Notes under the pieces: generated by a model
The model's database searches: none
Told to the model about the DNA's origin: nothing
The model's input: the letters and a program-made list of their open reading frames with translations, nothing else
Origin: a virus
Taxonomy: Duplodnaviria > Heunggongvirae > Uroviricota > Caudoviricetes
Virus record (IMG/VR): IMGVR_UViG_2609459861_000001
DNA: 17,760 bases
Reading direction: 5' to 3' (one strand)
Position numbers and translations under genes: made by a program
In this document: in pieces, positions 1 through 15,140 of the stretch
Position numbering within the stretch: the stretch's first letter is position 1
Layout: each line of letters begins with the position of its first letter

Positions 1-1032
1 TCAAAAACTTGCTATTGATGTTGGTAGTGTTGCCAGCGGATTAAACCGTAATGCAGTTTCCAGGTGATCCGGTGCCAGATGTGCGTAACGCATAGTCATT
101 TTTATATCGTGGTGTCCGAGAATTTTTTGTAAGGCCAGAATGTTTCCACCCGACATCATGAAGTGCGCCGCAAACGTATGGCGCAGAACGTGTGTCAGTT
201 GACCGCGAGGGAGCACGATAGACGTTTTTTCCATCACGGATAAAAATTGAAAATAGCAGTCTGTAAAGAAATTGAACCCATCAAGCGCCATGATCTCTTC
301 GTAAAGCTCTTTACTGATAGGGATGCTTCTGTTTTTCTTCCCCTTCGTTCTTACAAAGGTAATTCGGTATTTGGTCACCTGTGAGCGGGTAAGATTTACG
401 GCTTCACGCCAACGTGCGCCTGTGCTTAAGCATATCTTAACTACCAGTGCCAGAATTGGGTCCTGACGTTTGCAATCAGCCAGCAATTCAACAATCTGCT
501 CATGGGTAAGCCATGCCATCTCTTTTTCTGCGATGGTGAATTTTCGCATGTTCTCCAGTGGGTTCGGATACGACCATTCGCCCAGACGGGATAGTTCGCT
601 AAAAACACTACTTAGATAGCTTTGCTCCAGGTTAATGGTGACCGGGCTTGCTCCTTTCTTCCATTTCTCGCTGAAGTAGATCTCGCCTGTCAGGCGTTTA
701 TCTCGATAGTGGGCAAACATTTTAGAGGTGAGATCGGTTGCAAGAGGATTGCCCAGAGCGTCAACCATCAACAGCAATTTGTCATAGACATGCTGCCCAG
801 CTGTCAGAGATTTACCATGTAGTTTGAACCATAGTTCAACCACGTCTTTCAGTGTTCGACGATCCACTGATTCACCCAGCCAGGGCTTTGCTTCGGTTTC
901 TTCCATCGTGTGGCGCTCAAAAGCCAGAGCTTCGCCTTTGGTGGCGAATTGTTTACGCACACGACGCCCACTACGTCCGGCGGGGTAACATTCGCAAAGC
1001 CATTTTCCTGTGGTGAGTTTTCGTACTGCCAT
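1..1032 (-). CDS. int: P2/186-family tyrosine integrase
   Basis: Minus-strand ORF with stop at 1-3. Start chosen at ATG 1030-1032 (MAVRKLTTGKW..., like P2 Int MAIKKL...) with GGAGG about 11 nt upstream, rather than the track start at 1110. C-terminal region HxLRHT...Y (LRHTFAAH...MRYAHL) is typical of tyrosine recombinases. Confidence 0.85.
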   Translation of the reverse strand: MAVRKLTTGKWLCECYPAGRSGRRVRKQFATKGEALAFERHTMEETEAKPWLGESVDRRTLKDVVELWFKLHGKSLTAGQHVYDKLLLMVDALGNPLATDLTSKMFAHYRDKRLTGEIYFSEKWKKGASPVTINLEQSYLSSVFSELSRLGEWSYPNPLENMRKFTIAEKEMAWLTHEQIVELLADCKRQDPILALVVKICLSTGARWREAVNLTRSQVTKYRITFVRTKGKKNRSIPISKELYEEIMALDGFNFFTDCYFQFLSVMEKTSIVLPRGQLTHVLRHTFAAHFMMSGGNILALQKILGHHDIKMTMRYAHLAPDHLETALRFNPLATLPTSIASF

Positions 1033-1218
1033 AAAAAATGCCCTCCAATAGAGAGCATTTTTACTGTATGTATAACCAGTGTCAATGTATGAAATCTTGC
1101 GACCATACATCTCACTGAAGCCATAATGAAGTTGGCTATTTTTTGCTATGTGAGTATGTAACTTTTGCGGTTAGCCTGCGGCTCATTGTTATATTAGGCG
1201 CAGATATAAAAGCAAAGT

Positions 1219-1410
1219 TTATCGTGATTTTTTAGTACAGATTTTTTTGGATTTACTAATAGTTCCATCATTGCAAACAAATTTTCCATCGGAGGTACAG
1301 TGAGATACACCACCCTTTTTCCCAGAACAAGGATAATTTTTAGCATAGGTAGTTAGTGGGCTTAATAACAAAGAGCATGATAAAACCACAAAAAATACTT
1401 TACCAAGCAT
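1219..1410 (-). CDS. small secreted cysteine-rich, lysine-rich peptide (63 aa), moron between int and cI
   Basis: ATG at 1408-1410 preceded on the minus strand by a strong GGGAGGA Shine-Dalgarno. N-terminus [23 protein letters not shown] looks like a Sec signal peptide (AxA-type cleavage after TYA). Mature part has 4 Cys and many Lys. Lies 15 bp downstream of the cI stop in an A+T-rich stretch. Confidence 0.5.
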
Positions 1411-1425
1411 AGTTTCCTCCCGGTA

Positions 1426-1995
1426 TTATCTAACATATTTAACTGTTAAACTTATAATTTTTCCAATTATTTCAACATCTTCTATCTTGCAGTCGAAGGC
1501 TCTGTTTCCACCTTCAACGAAGATTCTTCCACCGGGTAAACGAGTAATGTCGCGGATTGTTATCTCGCCATCAATACTTATTACCCATTTACCATCACGT
1601 ATATCATCAAATTCTTTATCACAAATAAATTCAGAATTGTTATCTGTGATGACAAAAGGTTTTTTAAACGTAGAGGGTAGAAATCCCTTATCAAAAATAT
1701 AAAAACCGTCTTCACGCAAGGCACCATCAGATAATACATATTTAGCAACTTCCATAGTATTTGTATTACCTGAAGTTTGCTTTGAACCATGTCCAGTTGT
1801 GAGCCAATTAAGCGAGGTGCCCGTTTCAAGGGCGCACTGGATTACCCATTCTGCTGGGAATGAGTCACGCATGTAGCGTGTGGCGAGTGTACTTTTAGAG
1901 ATTCCTAAATGATCGCACAACGCCTGTCGAGTTTTGAATCCATAAGCTTCTACCATGCGCTCTATAGCGCCTCGTCCGCCTTTCTCCAAATTCAT
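1426..1995 (-). CDS. cI: 186-type CI immunity repressor
   Basis: About 190 aa. Translation aligns by eye with phage 186 CI (EAYGF...CALETG..LNWLTTG; C-terminal LPGG...V.GG). Start taken at ATG 1993-1995 with GGAG upstream; the track start is a GTG at 1999-2001. Confidence 0.8.
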   Translation of the reverse strand: MNLEKGGRGAIERMVEAYGFKTRQALCDHLGISKSTLATRYMRDSFPAEWVIQCALETGTSLNWLTTGHGSKQTSGNTNTMEVAKYVLSDGALREDGFYIFDKGFLPSTFKKPFVITDNNSEFICDKEFDDIRDGKWVISIDGEITIRDITRLPGGRIFVEGGNRAFDCKIEDVEIIGKIISLTVKYVR

Positions 1996-7999: not shown

Positions 8000-8085
8000 C
8001 GCGCGCAACTCGAGATAGTGTGATACTTATCTGAGAAATCTTAACAAGGTTCAATACAATACCCTTTCAAAAAAAGGGGAGTGTG

Positions 8086-9237
8086 ATGTTTGTAAAAAAT
8101 AACTTTAATACAAATAATTTCGATGCGGAATTAGTTGAAGCGATTGGTAATAGGCTGGAAAACAACCAATTTTCGGATGCAATACTTGCAGGAACCAAAT
8201 ATCTAACAACTTTGCTGCGTGAAAAAGGGCAATGTGAAGGGGATGGGGCTCAGCTTGTTGGTACTGTTTTGGGTGGACAATCACCTAGAATCCAAATTAA
8301 TAGTCTTCAATCTGTATCAGAGCAGGACGAACAGCGCGGATTTGAAGCACTATTAAGAGGCTACTATCAGTGTATAAGAAATCCAAGGACACATGACAAT
8401 TTCCCTGATACAGAAGATTCCTGCATGAGAATATTGATCATGTTGGATACTTTTATTAAGTATTTAAAAAGAGATGTTGCTGAGTTCGATTACACAGCAA
8501 TTCTTGAAAGAATTTATGAGGTTCACTTTGTAAATAATTCTGATTATGCAGAAGCTTTAATATCACAAATTCCAGAAAAAAAACTACTAGATTTTTTCCA
8601 AAGTTTAATTTCTCGCTTTAATGAAAGGCCAACCAAGGAAATTGATTCTATATTCAAAGCAATAAACCAACGCTTTTCAGGAGAGGAAGAAAAAGCCGCA
8701 ATGCGGTTGCTAGGTGATGAGTTACGCAAGGCTAGCAATAATGTTGAGTTTGCTAATGTATTTAGAATAATTAAGCCGAGCGCATGGAGAAATCTTCCTG
8801 ATGATGTTTTAATTAGAATGGAAAATATAATCATCGAAGAGTGCAAAAAAGGATATTTGGATTTCTATTCTGATGCGACCAAAGGAGCTATAGGAACATG
8901 GGGTAATACATTTGGTAGCAAATTTAAAAGAAGAGGTGATCTTGGTGATGCTTTAATTGGATTGTTATATGATAGTTGGTATACGCAAAATTATGTTGCG
9001 AAATATTACGTTTTTTCAATCCCTTCTATCATTACTGATGATGTGAAAGTTAAGGAGTTAGCTGATGCTTTAGCTTATGCCACCATTGTAAATGGTGCTA
9101 AGCTTTTACGAACAAAATTGATTGATGCATGTAAAAATTATCCTGATAAGTTGAAAGAGCATCTTAGGGATGCTGTTCAGCAACGGATGGATAGTGATAA
9201 AAAATATGCGGAAGAATTATTAGGTCAAATAAGCTGA
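8086..9237 (+). CDS. A+T-rich cargo gene: protein with N-terminal HEPN-like domain (Rx4H motif) and uncharacterised C-terminal domain; candidate anti-phage defence
   Basis: 383 aa from ATG 8086 (GTG 8083 also in frame) with AAGGGGAG RBS. Codon usage and base composition are visibly A+T-rich compared with neighbouring phage genes. Motif CIRNPRTHD (R99...H104, nt 8377-8394) at the end of a roughly 125-aa N-terminal domain resembles the HEPN Rx4-6H signature. Own terminator downstream. Confidence 0.6.
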   Translation: MFVKNNFNTNNFDAELVEAIGNRLENNQFSDAILAGTKYLTTLLREKGQCEGDGAQLVGTVLGGQSPRIQINSLQSVSEQDEQRGFEALLRGYYQCIRNPRTHDNFPDTEDSCMRILIMLDTFIKYLKRDVAEFDYTAILERIYEVHFVNNSDYAEALISQIPEKKLLDFFQSLISRFNERPTKEIDSIFKAINQRFSGEEEKAAMRLLGDELRKASNNVEFANVFRIIKPSAWRNLPDDVLIRMENIIIEECKKGYLDFYSDATKGAIGTWGNTFGSKFKRRGDLGDALIGLLYDSWYTQNYVAKYYVFSIPSIITDDVKVKELADALAYATIVNGAKLLRTKLIDACKNYPDKLKEHLRDAVQQRMDSDKKYAEELLGQIS

Positions 9238-12089: not shown

Positions 12090-12135
12090 GGCACAAACCT
12101 ACAACCTTGAATGAAGGCTTTCCCCGCCTGCGGTT

Positions 12136-12153
12136 TGTGTGGTTGTCGGTACA
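12136..12153. promoter_or_regulatory. candidate Ogr/Delta-dependent late promoter element (TGT-N12-ACA)
   Basis: TGTGTGGTTGTCGGTACA fits TGT-N12-ACA. Its centre is about 55-60 bp upstream of a plausible rightward start site preceding the ORF at 12232. Confidence 0.4.
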
Positions 12154-12231
12154 AATACCGCGCATTGTTTCACTGCCCCCATCACCGCAACCATAAGGCT
12201 CCAGTAAGTTTTTTCTAACGGAGCACGGCTC

Positions 12232-13017
12232 ATGACAGTGAAAGCAAAGCGTTTTCGCATCGGGGTGGAAGGTGCCACCACCGACGGACGCGAAATCCAG
12301 CGTGAATGGTTTACTGATCTGCTGACGCCCGTTAAGTCGACCTCTGCCGAACTGCAGAGCGCAGCGGCCATGGGGCGACGATTCGGGGAGGCACTGGCAG
12401 AAGGGCTGAATATGGTCATGCATCCGCTGGACTCCCTGAAATCCGGCGTTTCCTGGTTGCTGGAGAAACTCGGCATTGTCAGTAAAGAGGCTGCAAAGGC
12501 GAAACTGCCGGAAAGCGTGACGCGTCAGCAACCTGCGACGGTGAAGGCAGACGGTAAAGTGATGATGCCATCGGGTGATTTTCCGTCATGGGGATATGGC
12601 TTTGCGGGGATGTATGACAGCGGCGGCTATATCCCGCGCGGGCAGTTTGGCATCGTCGGTGAAAACGGGCCGGAAATTGTTAACGGCCCGGCAAACGTGA
12701 CCAGCCGGAGAAATACAGCTGCACTGGCTGCCGTTGTCGCCGGAATGATGGGTGTTGCTGCCGCGCCAGCAGAGCTTCCACCGTTGCATCCTTTGGCGCT
12801 TCCCGCAAAAGGCGGTGAAGCGATGGTGAGTCGTGCAGCTACTGTGCCGCCCATTTACCGGATTGAAGCACCGACGCAGATCATCATCCAGACACAGCCA
12901 GGACAAAGTGCGCAGGATATTGCGCGGGAGGTGGCCCGCCAGCTTGATGAACGTGAACGCAGGCTGAAGGCAAAAGCCAGGAGTAACTACAGCGATCAGG
13001 GGGGATACGACGCATGA
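12232..13017 (+). CDS. probable deletion-fusion ORF: capsid scaffold gpO-like N-terminus joined to tail tape-measure-like (gpT) C-terminus
   Basis: N-terminus KRFRIGVEGATTDGREI resembles P2 gpO (KFFRIGVEGDTCDGRVI). The rest (GMYDSGGYIPRGQFGIVGENGPEIV) resembles C-terminal motifs of tape-measure proteins, and the ORF is followed directly by gpU and gpD as T is in P2. Confidence 0.5.
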   Translation: MTVKAKRFRIGVEGATTDGREIQREWFTDLLTPVKSTSAELQSAAAMGRRFGEALAEGLNMVMHPLDSLKSGVSWLLEKLGIVSKEAAKAKLPESVTRQQPATVKADGKVMMPSGDFPSWGYGFAGMYDSGGYIPRGQFGIVGENGPEIVNGPANVTSRRNTAALAAVVAGMMGVAAAPAELPPLHPLALPAKGGEAMVSRAATVPPIYRIEAPTQIIIQTQPGQSAQDIAREVARQLDERERRLKAKARSNYSDQGGYDA

Positions 13018-13499
13018 TGATGGTGCTGGGATTGTACGTGTTTATGCTGCGCACCGTGCCATATCAGGAGCTGCAGTATCAACGCAGCTGGCGACATGCG
13101 GCAAACAGCCGGGTAAACCGATGTCCGTCCACGCAGTTTCTGGGACCGGACAACGACATGCTGACGCTTTCCGGTGTTCTTATGCCGGAGATAACAGGTG
13201 GCAGGCTGTCGTTGCTGGCACTGGAGCAGATGGCAGAACAGGGGAAAGCATGGCCCCTGATTGAAGGCAGTGGCACGATTTATGGCATGTATGTGATTGA
13301 GGGACTGAATCAGACTAAAACGGAGTTTTTCCGCGACGGTATGCCGCGCCGGATTGAGTTCACCCTGTCGCTCAAACGGGTGGATGAATCCCTGTCCGAT
13401 ATATTCGGTGATCTCAGTGCGCAACTGAATAATCTGCAGGACACAGCAACGTCTGCCTTAAGCGATATCAGTAAAACGGTGGGAGGGCTGCTGTCATGA
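13014..13499 (+). CDS. tail protein gpU-like
   Basis: 161 aa, MMMVLGLYVFMLRTVP... resembles P2 gpU in sequence and size. ATGATGATG start overlaps the upstream stop. Confidence 0.8.
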   Translation: MMMVLGLYVFMLRTVPYQELQYQRSWRHAANSRVNRCPSTQFLGPDNDMLTLSGVLMPEITGGRLSLLALEQMAEQGKAWPLIEGSGTIYGMYVIEGLNQTKTEFFRDGMPRRIEFTLSLKRVDESLSDIFGDLSAQLNNLQDTATSALSDISKTVGGLLS

Positions 13500-14596
13500 A
13501 TTTCAGCTCTGAACTGCTTAACAAAGGCAACAAAACTCCCGCATTCAGCATCAGTATTGAGGGCAGGGATATCACCACTGTGCTGGATAACCGCCTGATG
13601 AGTTTGACGCTGACGGACAATCGGGGCTTTGAAGCGGACCAGCTTGATCTGGAGCTGGACGACGCCGACGGAAAAATCGTGCTGCCGCGCCGTGGTGCGG
13701 TCATTACGCTGGCGCTGGGCTGGAAGGGGCAGCCGCTTTTCCCGAAAGGGGCATTCACGGTGGACGAGATTGAACACACTGGCGCACCGGACCGCCTGAC
13801 TATCCGGGCGCGAAGTGCTGATTTTCGTGAAACACTGAATACCCGTCGTGAAAAGTCGTGGCACAAGACCACCGTTGGGGAAGTGGTGAAGGAAATAGCT
13901 GCGCGGCACAAACTGAAGATGGCATTGGGTAAAGACCTGTCAGATAAACCCGTGGAACATATAGATCAGACCAATGAGAGTGACGGCAGTTTTCTGATGC
14001 GGCTGGCGCGCCAGTACGGTGCTATTGCGTCGGTGAAAAATGGCAATCTGTTATTCATCCGACAGGGGCAGGGTAAAAGCGCCAGTGGTAAACCACTACC
14101 GGTTATCACTATCACACGTAAGGACGGCGACAGTCACCGCTTTACCCTGGCAGATCGCGGAGCTTACACGGGCGTAATTGCCAGCTGGTTGCATACCCGC
14201 GAACCCGCGAAGAAAGAAAGCACCGCGGTGAAGCGTAAGCGCAGGACTAAGAAGCAGAAGAAAGAGCCGGAAACGAAGCAGGGCGATTATCTGGTGGGTA
14301 CGGATGAAAACGTGCTGGTACTTAATCGCACCTATGCTAATCGGAGTAACGCCGAACGGGCAGCGAAAATGCAGTGGGAACGCCTGCAACGCGGCGTTGC
14401 GTCATTCTCGCTACAACTGGCGGAAGGGCGGGCAGATCTCTACACGGAAATGCCAGTGAAAGTCAGTGGCTTTAAACAGCCGATAGATGATGCGGAATGG
14501 ACCATTACGACTCTGACGCATACCGTCAGCCCCGATAACGGTTTTACAACCAGTCTGGAGCTTGAAGTGAGGATTGATGATTTCGAAATGGAATGA
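13496..14596 (+). CDS. tail protein gpD-like
   Basis: 366 aa immediately after gpU with ATGA overlap. Order U-D-ogr matches P2. Confidence 0.8.
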   Translation: MNFSSELLNKGNKTPAFSISIEGRDITTVLDNRLMSLTLTDNRGFEADQLDLELDDADGKIVLPRRGAVITLALGWKGQPLFPKGAFTVDEIEHTGAPDRLTIRARSADFRETLNTRREKSWHKTTVGEVVKEIAARHKLKMALGKDLSDKPVEHIDQTNESDGSFLMRLARQYGAIASVKNGNLLFIRQGQGKSASGKPLPVITITRKDGDSHRFTLADRGAYTGVIASWLHTREPAKKESTAVKRKRRTKKQKKEPETKQGDYLVGTDENVLVLNRTYANRSNAERAAKMQWERLQRGVASFSLQLAEGRADLYTEMPVKVSGFKQPIDDAEWTITTLTHTVSPDNGFTTSLELEVRIDDFEME

Positions 14597-14686
14597 TTCT
14601 TCGCAATGGAGAACTTTTAAGTTTGCAAAATGGAATAATGCGGTATCATTATTGTGAATTTAGCAAAAATGGGGAGAACTCGAAAA

Positions 14687-14905
14687 ATGATGATTTGCCC
14701 ACTGTGTGGAAGTGCCGCCCATACTCGCAGCAGTTTTCAGGTATCTTCATTGACCAAAGAGCGTTACAACCAGTGCCAGAACATTAACTGCAGCCATACT
14801 TTTGTTACCCATGAAACTTTTGTTCGTTCGATTGCAACGCCAAAAGAGTCAAATCCGGTTCAGCCACATCCAATGAAATCAGGACAGGTGGCGCTCTCTC
14901 TTTGA
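14687..14905 (+). CDS. ogr: Ogr/Delta-family zinc-finger late-gene transcription activator
   Basis: 72 aa from ATG 14687 (MMICPLCGSAAHTRSSF...KERYNQCQNINCSHTF, compare P2 Ogr MFHCPLCQHAAHARTS...KERYHQCQNVNCSATF). GGGGAGA RBS. The track ORF starts at an upstream GTG. Confidence 0.8.
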   Translation: MMICPLCGSAAHTRSSFQVSSLTKERYNQCQNINCSHTFVTHETFVRSIATPKESNPVQPHPMKSGQVALSL

Positions 14906-15140
14906 CGCTGCCGCCATTTTGTCGCCATCGTTAAAAAACAGTGTTTCTAACATCATGATTTTAAACAGCTTAAATTTCAGGCAACAAAAAACCCATCAAC
15001 CTTGAACCGAAATGGCGGGGGTGATGGGCTCCACAAAATGGGGACATCAAAGAAAAGCAGTGGCACTAATTAAGACTGATGCCCTGCGGAAAAGTTCTGC
15101 GGTTGTGCAAAAAAATTTCATTTTCAGGGCAACTTCAGTT

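Follow-up and report, generated by a model that had tools for sequence, protein, structure and literature searches.

The interval between the repressor gene cI and the integrase gene int has been named a defence hotspot in K139-like phages (Rousset et al., 2022; PMC9122126), and a survey from 2026 located 8% of the defence systems of P2-like prophages in the interval from integrase to primase (PMC13586616). Phage 186 has no gap between cI and int; Vibrio phage K139 has the order cI-orf2-glo-int, and in both phages the lysogenic promoter pL drives the genes from cI through int. Glo is annotated in GenBank as periplasmic and involved in phage exclusion, and has been described as a soluble periplasmic exclusion protein (PMC3952083). 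Escherichia coli YdcA, in turn, is a protein of 57 amino acids (aa) and unknown function, with a signal sequence and a predicted periplasmic location (PMC11340327); no functional study of the YdcA family was found in the literature. The gene considered here is a ydcA-like open reading frame (ORF) of 63 codons lying between cI and int of a 186-like (Peduoviridae) prophage, within a 17,760-nucleotide (nt) stretch of Caudoviricetes DNA (IMG/VR record IMGVR_UViG_2609459861_000001), the whole of which is referred to below as the window. In the favoured account, to which a probability of about 0.55 is assigned, this gene encodes a YdcA-family protein that is made in the lysogen, exported, and acts in the cell envelope; the identity of the protein, its expression context and its export, taken on their own, are very probable.

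The ydcA-like gene, its product and its operon

The features of the window concerned are:

1219–1410, minus strand: ydcA-like coding sequence, 63 codons plus a TAA stop; encoded protein identical to RefSeq WP_072005502.1 ('YdcA family protein')
1342–1410, minus strand: predicted Sec signal peptide, codons 1–23, with a predicted signal peptidase I cut after A23 (between TYA and K)
1222–1341, minus strand: mature 40-aa peptide, four invariant Cys (two predicted disulfides), charge about +8
1416–1421, minus strand: Shine-Dalgarno sequence GGGAGG, 5 nt before the ydcA ATG (GGGAGG-N5-ATG), read from the sequence
1426–1995, minus strand: cI repressor, 186 type (Pfam Phage_CI_repr, 2.8e-33, and Phage_CI_C, 1e-28; RefSeq annotation)
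1–1032, minus strand: tyrosine integrase int (Pfam Int_N and Phage_integrase; RefSeq annotation)

By homology search, the prophage protein is a member of the YdcA family, already catalogued and not new, although the first-pass annotation, made from the letters of the window, had not recognised the family. With the curated equivalog model NCBIfam NF007463 (PRK10040.1-2) it scores 113.5 bits, above the cut-off of 93, residues 5–63 aligning with positions 1–58 of the 58-position profile, and it matches PHROG 6000 (E = 9e-34). NF007462, the model for K-12 YdcA, gives 67.5 bits, under its cut-off of 118; the protein is therefore of the phage-type subfamily and not the K-12 equivalog. The Pfam family PF27300 ('YdcA') is precomputed on a 94%-identical protein (P0001) and 57 other matches, and on neighbouring homologues; a scan of the ORF against a Pfam-A release without PF27300 returned only a sub-threshold chance match, GULLO2-like (E = 0.068). 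The chromosomal ydcA of E. coli is a paralogue, with about 74% DNA identity in the core. K-12 YdcA (b1419) resembles the prophage protein in architecture: in both, a predicted Sec leader precedes a domain of some 35 aa that contains the motif PCSGxKGG(V/I)xxC...F(V/I)CxDG(S/T)xSxSKxxC and the four invariant Cys. The prophage protein is the more basic, at +8 where the family median is +4, and the settings differ, as the K-12 gene adjoins cybB and rydC whereas the prophage copy sits in a lysogeny operon.

The layout of the protein is that of an exported domain. The leader begins with a short basic n-region (K4), continues with a hydrophobic core of 12 residues and ends in T-Y-A (positions −3 to −1). 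Across the family, 176 of 184 members have A, G or S at position −1, position −3 is small or aliphatic, and the median leader length is 23 aa. In alignments of homologues, the first 23 or so residues are variable and hydrophobic, an Ala at −1 being invariant among the homologues aligned, and the next 35 or so are strongly conserved, with the core pattern PCSGxKGG(V/I)xHC..(D)GxF(V/I)CxDG(S/T)xSxSKxxC, in which four Cys are invariant; the invariant positions include P27, C28, S29, K32, G33, G34, C38, F44, C46, D48, G49, S52, S54, K55 and C58. Such a pairing of a variable hydrophobic leader with a conserved four-Cys core is characteristic of a disulfide-bonded domain in the periplasm from which a Sec leader is cut off. 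The disulfide reading draws on the four invariant Cys and on the closest solved structure, Dis2, the lobes of which are pinned by disulfides (PMC8486379). The mature peptide contains 9 Lys, 1 Arg and 4 Cys, with an isoelectric point of 9.75 and a charge of +7.8, and an AlphaFold2 model (35-sequence alignment) gives the core a predicted local distance difference test score (pLDDT) of about 85–92, with two short strands. The signal peptide and the Lys-rich, four-Cys mature part proposed in the first-pass annotation are thus supported by the leader pattern and the composition of the core. Its description of the protein as secreted holds for predicted export but not for release from the cell, the periplasm being the most likely destination.

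A different reading of the leader, in which the protein would be a lipoprotein lipidated at Cys12, can hardly be entertained, and the same is true of the suggestion that the ORF is spurious or decaying. Residues 9–12 (V-L-S-C) bear a loose resemblance to a lipobox, but Cys12 is too near the N-terminus and is not conserved, being replaced by S, G, I or L in homologues. PROSITE rule PS51257 allows no charge in the six residues before the lipobox Cys, and Lys4 falls within that stretch. The lipoprotein reading was rejected on these grounds.

The nucleotide variation of the gene indicates that prophage ydcA is under strong purifying selection. Selection was assessed on 80 close relatives from viral contigs, representing 12 DNA alleles and 5 protein alleles. 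The ORF is intact in all 80 copies, so that the disruption in close relatives that had been named at the outset as counting against a real gene was not seen. Synonymous changes account for 18 of the 22 variable nucleotides, with a ratio of nonsynonymous to synonymous polymorphism (pN/pS) of 0.05. The four replacements are V5I and S17N in the leader, K24R at the first mature residue and K61N in the tail. Over the 27-codon core shared with a 70%-identical homologue, pS is 0.99 (saturated) and pN is 0.03. A spurious or decaying ORF was ruled out by the pN/pS of 0.05 and by the maintenance of the family across the Proteobacteria. At a threshold of at least 90% DNA identity, the gene is carried by about 628 of 5426 complete E. 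coli genomes (about 11%).

The minus strand of the window carries, in order, cI, the 63-codon ORF and int. The cI stop codon (TAA) lies at 1428–1426 and ydcA starts 15 nt downstream on the same strand, so that the first-pass description of a 63-aa ORF with a strong Shine-Dalgarno sequence, 15 nt after the cI stop, agrees with the coordinates and with GGGAGG-N5-ATG. A consensus scan found no sigma-70-like promoter in the cI-ydcA interval on the ydcA strand. Homologues in the cI-int slot are equally close-packed, with a stop/start overlap in phage HP2, 2-nt gaps in a Hafnia prophage and 23 nt in another E. coli prophage. Because of the 15-nt gap, the lack of a sigma-70-like promoter and the tight packing of the homologues, co-transcription with cI is the only reasonable arrangement, and the suggestion that the two genes are probably co-transcribed is upheld as far as sequence can tell. 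Its position immediately after cI makes ydcA the second gene of this prophage's lysogenic operon, and a lysogenic-conversion role may be inferred for it.

The cI-int interval as a cargo site and the spread of the family

As cI abuts int in phage 186, the ydcA ORF is an insertion relative to the type phage. The general statement that int directly follows the repressor gene in P2/186-type phages applies to phage 186, but not to the many relatives that carry cargo between the two genes. Escherichia phage vB_EcoM-813R9 has PD-Lambda-1 in this slot, and Klebsiella phage 4LV2017 has a 349-aa unknown protein. In another E. coli prophage lineage, a PDC-S20 KAP NTPase gene begins 12 nt after a YdcA that is 70% identical to the one described here. 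PD-Lambda-1 and the KAP NTPase share with ydcA both the slot and the conserved int leader downstream; they are, however, large cytoplasmic defence proteins of ATPase or nuclease type, whereas YdcA is a predicted exported peptide of 4 kDa. Other cI-int cargo was observed in two sister prophages at the same chromosomal site (L086, 4198–5529; L085, 3591–5267): in one, a YdcA homologue is immediately followed by a PDC-S20 KAP NTPase (E = 1e-171), and the other has PD-Lambda-1 (E = 3e-120) with T5orf172/MUG113 domains.

A parallel in this position is Glo of K139. Glo, too, is small and exported, and its gene lies between cI and int, in the same orientation, within the lysogenic operon of a phage related to P2. 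It differs in its length (137 aa), in having no Cys-rich core, and in that exclusion has been demonstrated for it. No sequence or profile similarity to the window protein was found (hhalign probability, 0.1%).

YdcA homologues occupy the slot in several other phages and prophages. A Hafnia prophage has the order cI, a 143-aa ORF, YdcA and int, separated by the 2-nt gaps mentioned above, and cI-YdcA-int is also found in genomes of Yersinia, Buttiauxella and Escherichia species. An unannotated 60-aa YdcA homologue is also encoded between cI and int in Haemophilus phages HP2 and S2; its start codon shares bases with the cI stop (TAATG), and the gene for a secreted 254-aa protein separates it from int. 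In Moraxella Mcat phages, a YdcA homologue lies between the head and tail modules. The exact cI-ydcA-int module of the window was in no sequenced isolate phage of the phage collection searched by megablast, the only match being that of the int leader to Klebsiella phages. The picture is one of a host periplasmic mini-protein that has been captured repeatedly by different temperate phages.

The family itself is much wider than these phages. An exhaustive profile search yielded 439 clusters at 50% identity, 272 of them at E ≤ 1e-10, and in species-level genomes the family is spread over the Alpha-, Beta- and Gammaproteobacteria. A 15-billion-protein collection contains a cluster representative that is 94% identical to the window protein. 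Most members are chromosomal: about 9 of 80 species-level loci are in 186-like lysogeny modules and the others look chromosomal. No partner recurred consistently beside 73 chromosomal copies: DUF2946 was seen six times and GemA three times, and every other neighbour once. Three of the chromosomal-looking copies adjoin Mu GemA. The plasmid collection held only 10 YdcA records, none of them conjugative and several of chromosome size (4.8–4.9 Mb); a UniRef name, 'Conjugal transfer protein', was taken as an annotation artefact, there being no plasmid association in these 10 records.

Longer members also exist. One subfamily of about 105–145 aa (NF007464 type), common in Rhizobium, Comamonas, Herbaspirillum and Stenotrophomonas, has a second Cys-rich module after a low-complexity linker, with the pattern C.C.....C.GPRGG.(Y/F)C...SG.KSY (e.g. 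P0056, P0057, P0059 and P0061; loci L131, L134, L138 and L142). Other members (P0078, P0079 and P0080) have two or three YdcA repeats in tandem.

Possible roles of the predicted exported domain

In the favoured account, the ydcA product would be made whenever cI is made, i.e. in the lysogen, and would be exported by Sec and cut after Ala23; the resulting 40-aa, strongly cationic product would then fold in the periplasm with two disulfides. With less certainty, it may serve the lysogen by acting in the envelope, as Glo does from the K139 slot. A more specific exclusion or DNA-binding function is put forward tentatively: of the possible mechanisms, the likeliest is that the peptide binds a polyanion (incoming DNA or an outer-membrane-proximal entry machine), and it might thereby hinder the entry of foreign DNA and so cause superinfection exclusion. 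One lead to such a function is the location of the gene, as the cI-int slot is occupied by exclusion or defence genes (Glo, PD-Lambda-1, KAP NTPase), and the charge of the mature peptide (about +8) was counted toward it as well.

A further lead comes from domain fusions. A Pfam scan of 149 family representatives found fusions to Endonuclease_NS in three proteins (P0188, P0197 and P0198), to a staphylococcal nuclease (SNase) in one (P0108) and to a PLD-type domain (PLDc_2) in one (P0172). Nucleases of three unrelated folds are thus the only recurrent fusion partners with a known activity, and in these fusions the YdcA domain directly follows the leader. The SNase architecture is not a one-off, as it recurs in another fusion at 41% identity; other SNases in that search have Excalibur (PF05901) ahead of the nuclease domain. 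The fusions suggest that the YdcA domain binds nucleic acid or tethers enzymes in the envelope.

Several observations weigh against the favoured account and its extension to DNA. The nuclease fusions are rare (5 of 149), and an envelope-anchoring module would explain them equally well. The median charge of the family is only +4. Most YdcA members are chromosomal and have no conserved neighbour, and Glo, the model for envelope action from this slot, is not a homologue of the prophage protein by the hhalign comparison given above. No family of PADLOC-DB 2.0 matched YdcA at E ≤ 0.01; PADLOC gave no match either for the Hafnia 143-aa ORF, HP2 orf1(S), the 349-aa ORF of 4LV2017 or a 232-aa neighbour in Moraxella. 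The prophage in the window is defective, so that any benefit now goes to the host and not to a viable phage. A housekeeping envelope role is also possible, given that chromosomal ydcA has been loosely linked to acid and 3-hydroxypropionate tolerance (PMC7642389).

This last point can be developed into an alternative in which YdcA is an envelope-stress or acid-tolerance factor with no anti-phage role, the prophage adding dosage or a constitutive variant of a host periplasmic protein. E. coli W with chromosomal ydcA deleted is sensitive to 300 mM 3-hydroxypropionate (PMC7642389), and the authors of that study cite the induction of ydcA at pH 5 under YdcI. The chromosomal and solitary state of most family members fits a role of this kind, as does the maintenance of an intact gene inside a defective prophage. 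The phenotype, however, comes from a single study and has no mechanism attached to it, and NF007463, the subfamily of phage type, is separate from that of K-12. Moreover, several unrelated types of temperate phage have recruited ydcA repeatedly and the gene lies in a defence hotspot, both of which point to phage-phage or phage-host conflict; a stress role for the prophage copy is considered doubtful.

The solved structure closest to YdcA raises another alternative. Dis2 of Legionella pneumophila (Lpg0823), a protein of the Dot/Icm outer-membrane cap, has a signal peptide, small disulfide-pinned lobes and the motif C(C)SKMGGIxYC...VCN(N/D)G; its resemblance to YdcA is borderline. Dis2 (7MUC/7MUD chain AN) is the top profile match of the prophage protein (E = 3.6e-5, leader included) and also its top Foldseek match (probability 0.94, with 38–39% identity over 39 columns), and its two disulfide-pinned lobes lie near the outer membrane (PMC8486379). 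YdcA might, like one lobe of Dis2, be an outer-membrane-proximal adaptor that docks on a porin, secretin or receptor and masks or alters the complex, resulting in receptor-level exclusion or surface modification. Such a role is quite improbable for the prophage protein. Once the signal peptide is left out, the sequence match to Dis2 falls to E = 0.09 and 0.023, which is borderline and on a par with LDL-receptor repeats, and a phmmer search with a two-repeat family member gave E = 1.2. There are no secretion-system genes in the window, and prophage YdcA is a single domain without a type IV secretion association, unlike the two tandem lobes of Dis2. The receptor-masking proteins Llp of T5 and Cor of phi80 are lipoproteins, and prophage YdcA is not.

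It is also conceivable that YdcA works only as an accessory subunit, together with a slot partner such as the KAP NTPase, and that the prophage copy is an orphan. The KAP NTPase gene 12 nt behind the 70%-identical E. coli YdcA, the 143-aa ORF before YdcA in Hafnia and the secreted 254-aa protein after it in HP2 all point in this direction, but the partner differs in each context and is absent from the window. In addition, strong purifying selection acts on the solitary form, which is also the most frequent one (about 600 E. coli genomes); this leaves dependence on a partner a remote prospect.

A broader and unlikely extension of the favoured account runs as follows. The YdcA domain would be a previously unrecognised periplasmic or extracellular nucleic-acid-binding mini-domain, which in some bacteria targets secreted nucleases of three folds and which was co-opted as the lobes of Dis2; its free form, captured repeatedly by phages (186-like, HP2, Moraxella Mcat and Mu-like) and expressed in lysogeny, would trap or deflect incoming DNA in the periplasm.

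Flanking sequence, host prophage and meaning for the family

The remaining features of the cI-int region are:

1092–1425 (approximate), no strand assigned: cargo segment, from the cI stop to the conserved int leader, by int-leader alignment
1165–1181, minus strand: stem-loop in the ydcA 3' untranslated region, without a U-run and not a canonical terminator
1057–1085, minus strand: promoter-like TTGACA, 17-nt spacer, AAAAAT, upstream of int; kept in relatives; consensus match only
1033–1062, minus strand: hairpin plus U-run (AAAAAUGCUCUCUAUUGGAGGGCAUUUUUU) directly before the int ATG; the 3' arm contains the int Shine-Dalgarno sequence

The limits of the cargo, roughly 1092–1425, were drawn from the conserved int leader and from the near-identity to Klebsiella phages with other cargo, which ends at about position 1090 of the window. 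Composition is of no help in this respect. The first-pass annotation was right in describing the insert as A+T-rich (G+C, 0.32–0.36), but the 3' half of cI is equally so (0.31–0.35), and A+T-richness therefore marks no boundary. A block of low G+C between 1100 and 1800 (0.31–0.39) covers ydcA and the C-terminal domain of cI, the N-terminal DNA-binding domain of cI having a G+C of 0.45–0.50. The step in G+C suggests a mosaic junction inside cI, and since low G+C reaches through the 3' half of that gene, it may be that cI and ydcA moved as a single immunity cassette.

The int leader was aligned across four cargo types. The stem of its hairpin shows compensatory changes, with GCUCUC/GGAGGGC here and GCCCUC/GAGGGC and GUCCUCA/UGAGGAC in relatives, and the folding z-score for 1033–1218 is −3.7; an Rfam scan gave no match in 1–2100. 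This hairpin, in which the int Shine-Dalgarno sequence is sequestered, may attenuate or terminate transcription, or it may be a switch at the level of translation by which int is uncoupled from the transcript of cI and the cargo. With a conserved hairpin and U-run before the int start, read-through from ydcA to int is not assured.

Beyond cI, the plus strand carries an apl/cox-like gene, cII (Phage_CP76), fil and the remainder of a 186-type early region. In the RefSeq annotation of an identical locus, the terminase gene is followed directly by a 5'-truncated tape-measure gene and then by U, D and ogr (window positions ~12100–14905), the capsid, lysis and most tail genes being missing, which makes the prophage defective. 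Its right end adjoins the host small RNA gene rybB at 14983–15061 (Rfam RF00110, 100 bits; the sole Rfam match), with ybjL next, which places the element between rcdA and rybB; the 3' end of rybB is probably the attachment site. Another gene was observed at 8083–9237 on the plus strand, in the hotspot that is classical for P2, with replication gene A on one side and the portal gene on the other. It encodes a 384-aa TIGR02391-family protein, the N-terminus of which matches PADLOC PD-Lambda-3_B (2.4e-14) and Aga_HEPN (2.1e-9), and it is likely, on these matches, to be HEPN-type defence cargo.

As an object, the prophage gene is ordinary: a RefSeq accession and a family name exist for its product, and the gene occurs in roughly one of every nine complete E. 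coli genomes. The new elements are confined to the functional leads and to the missing annotation of ydcA in the HP2 and S2 reference genomes. Its value is that of a lead into a widespread proteobacterial orphan family, with the 439 clusters described above and a copy in K-12, to which three clues are added: repeated capture by phages into the repressor-integrase slot, fusions to nucleases of three folds, and a possible relative in Dis2. A peptide of 40 residues can be synthesised, and could provide an inexpensive route to the function of the YdcA family. If the proposal of DNA trapping in the periplasm is true, it would represent a new form of passive superinfection exclusion or anti-uptake defence.
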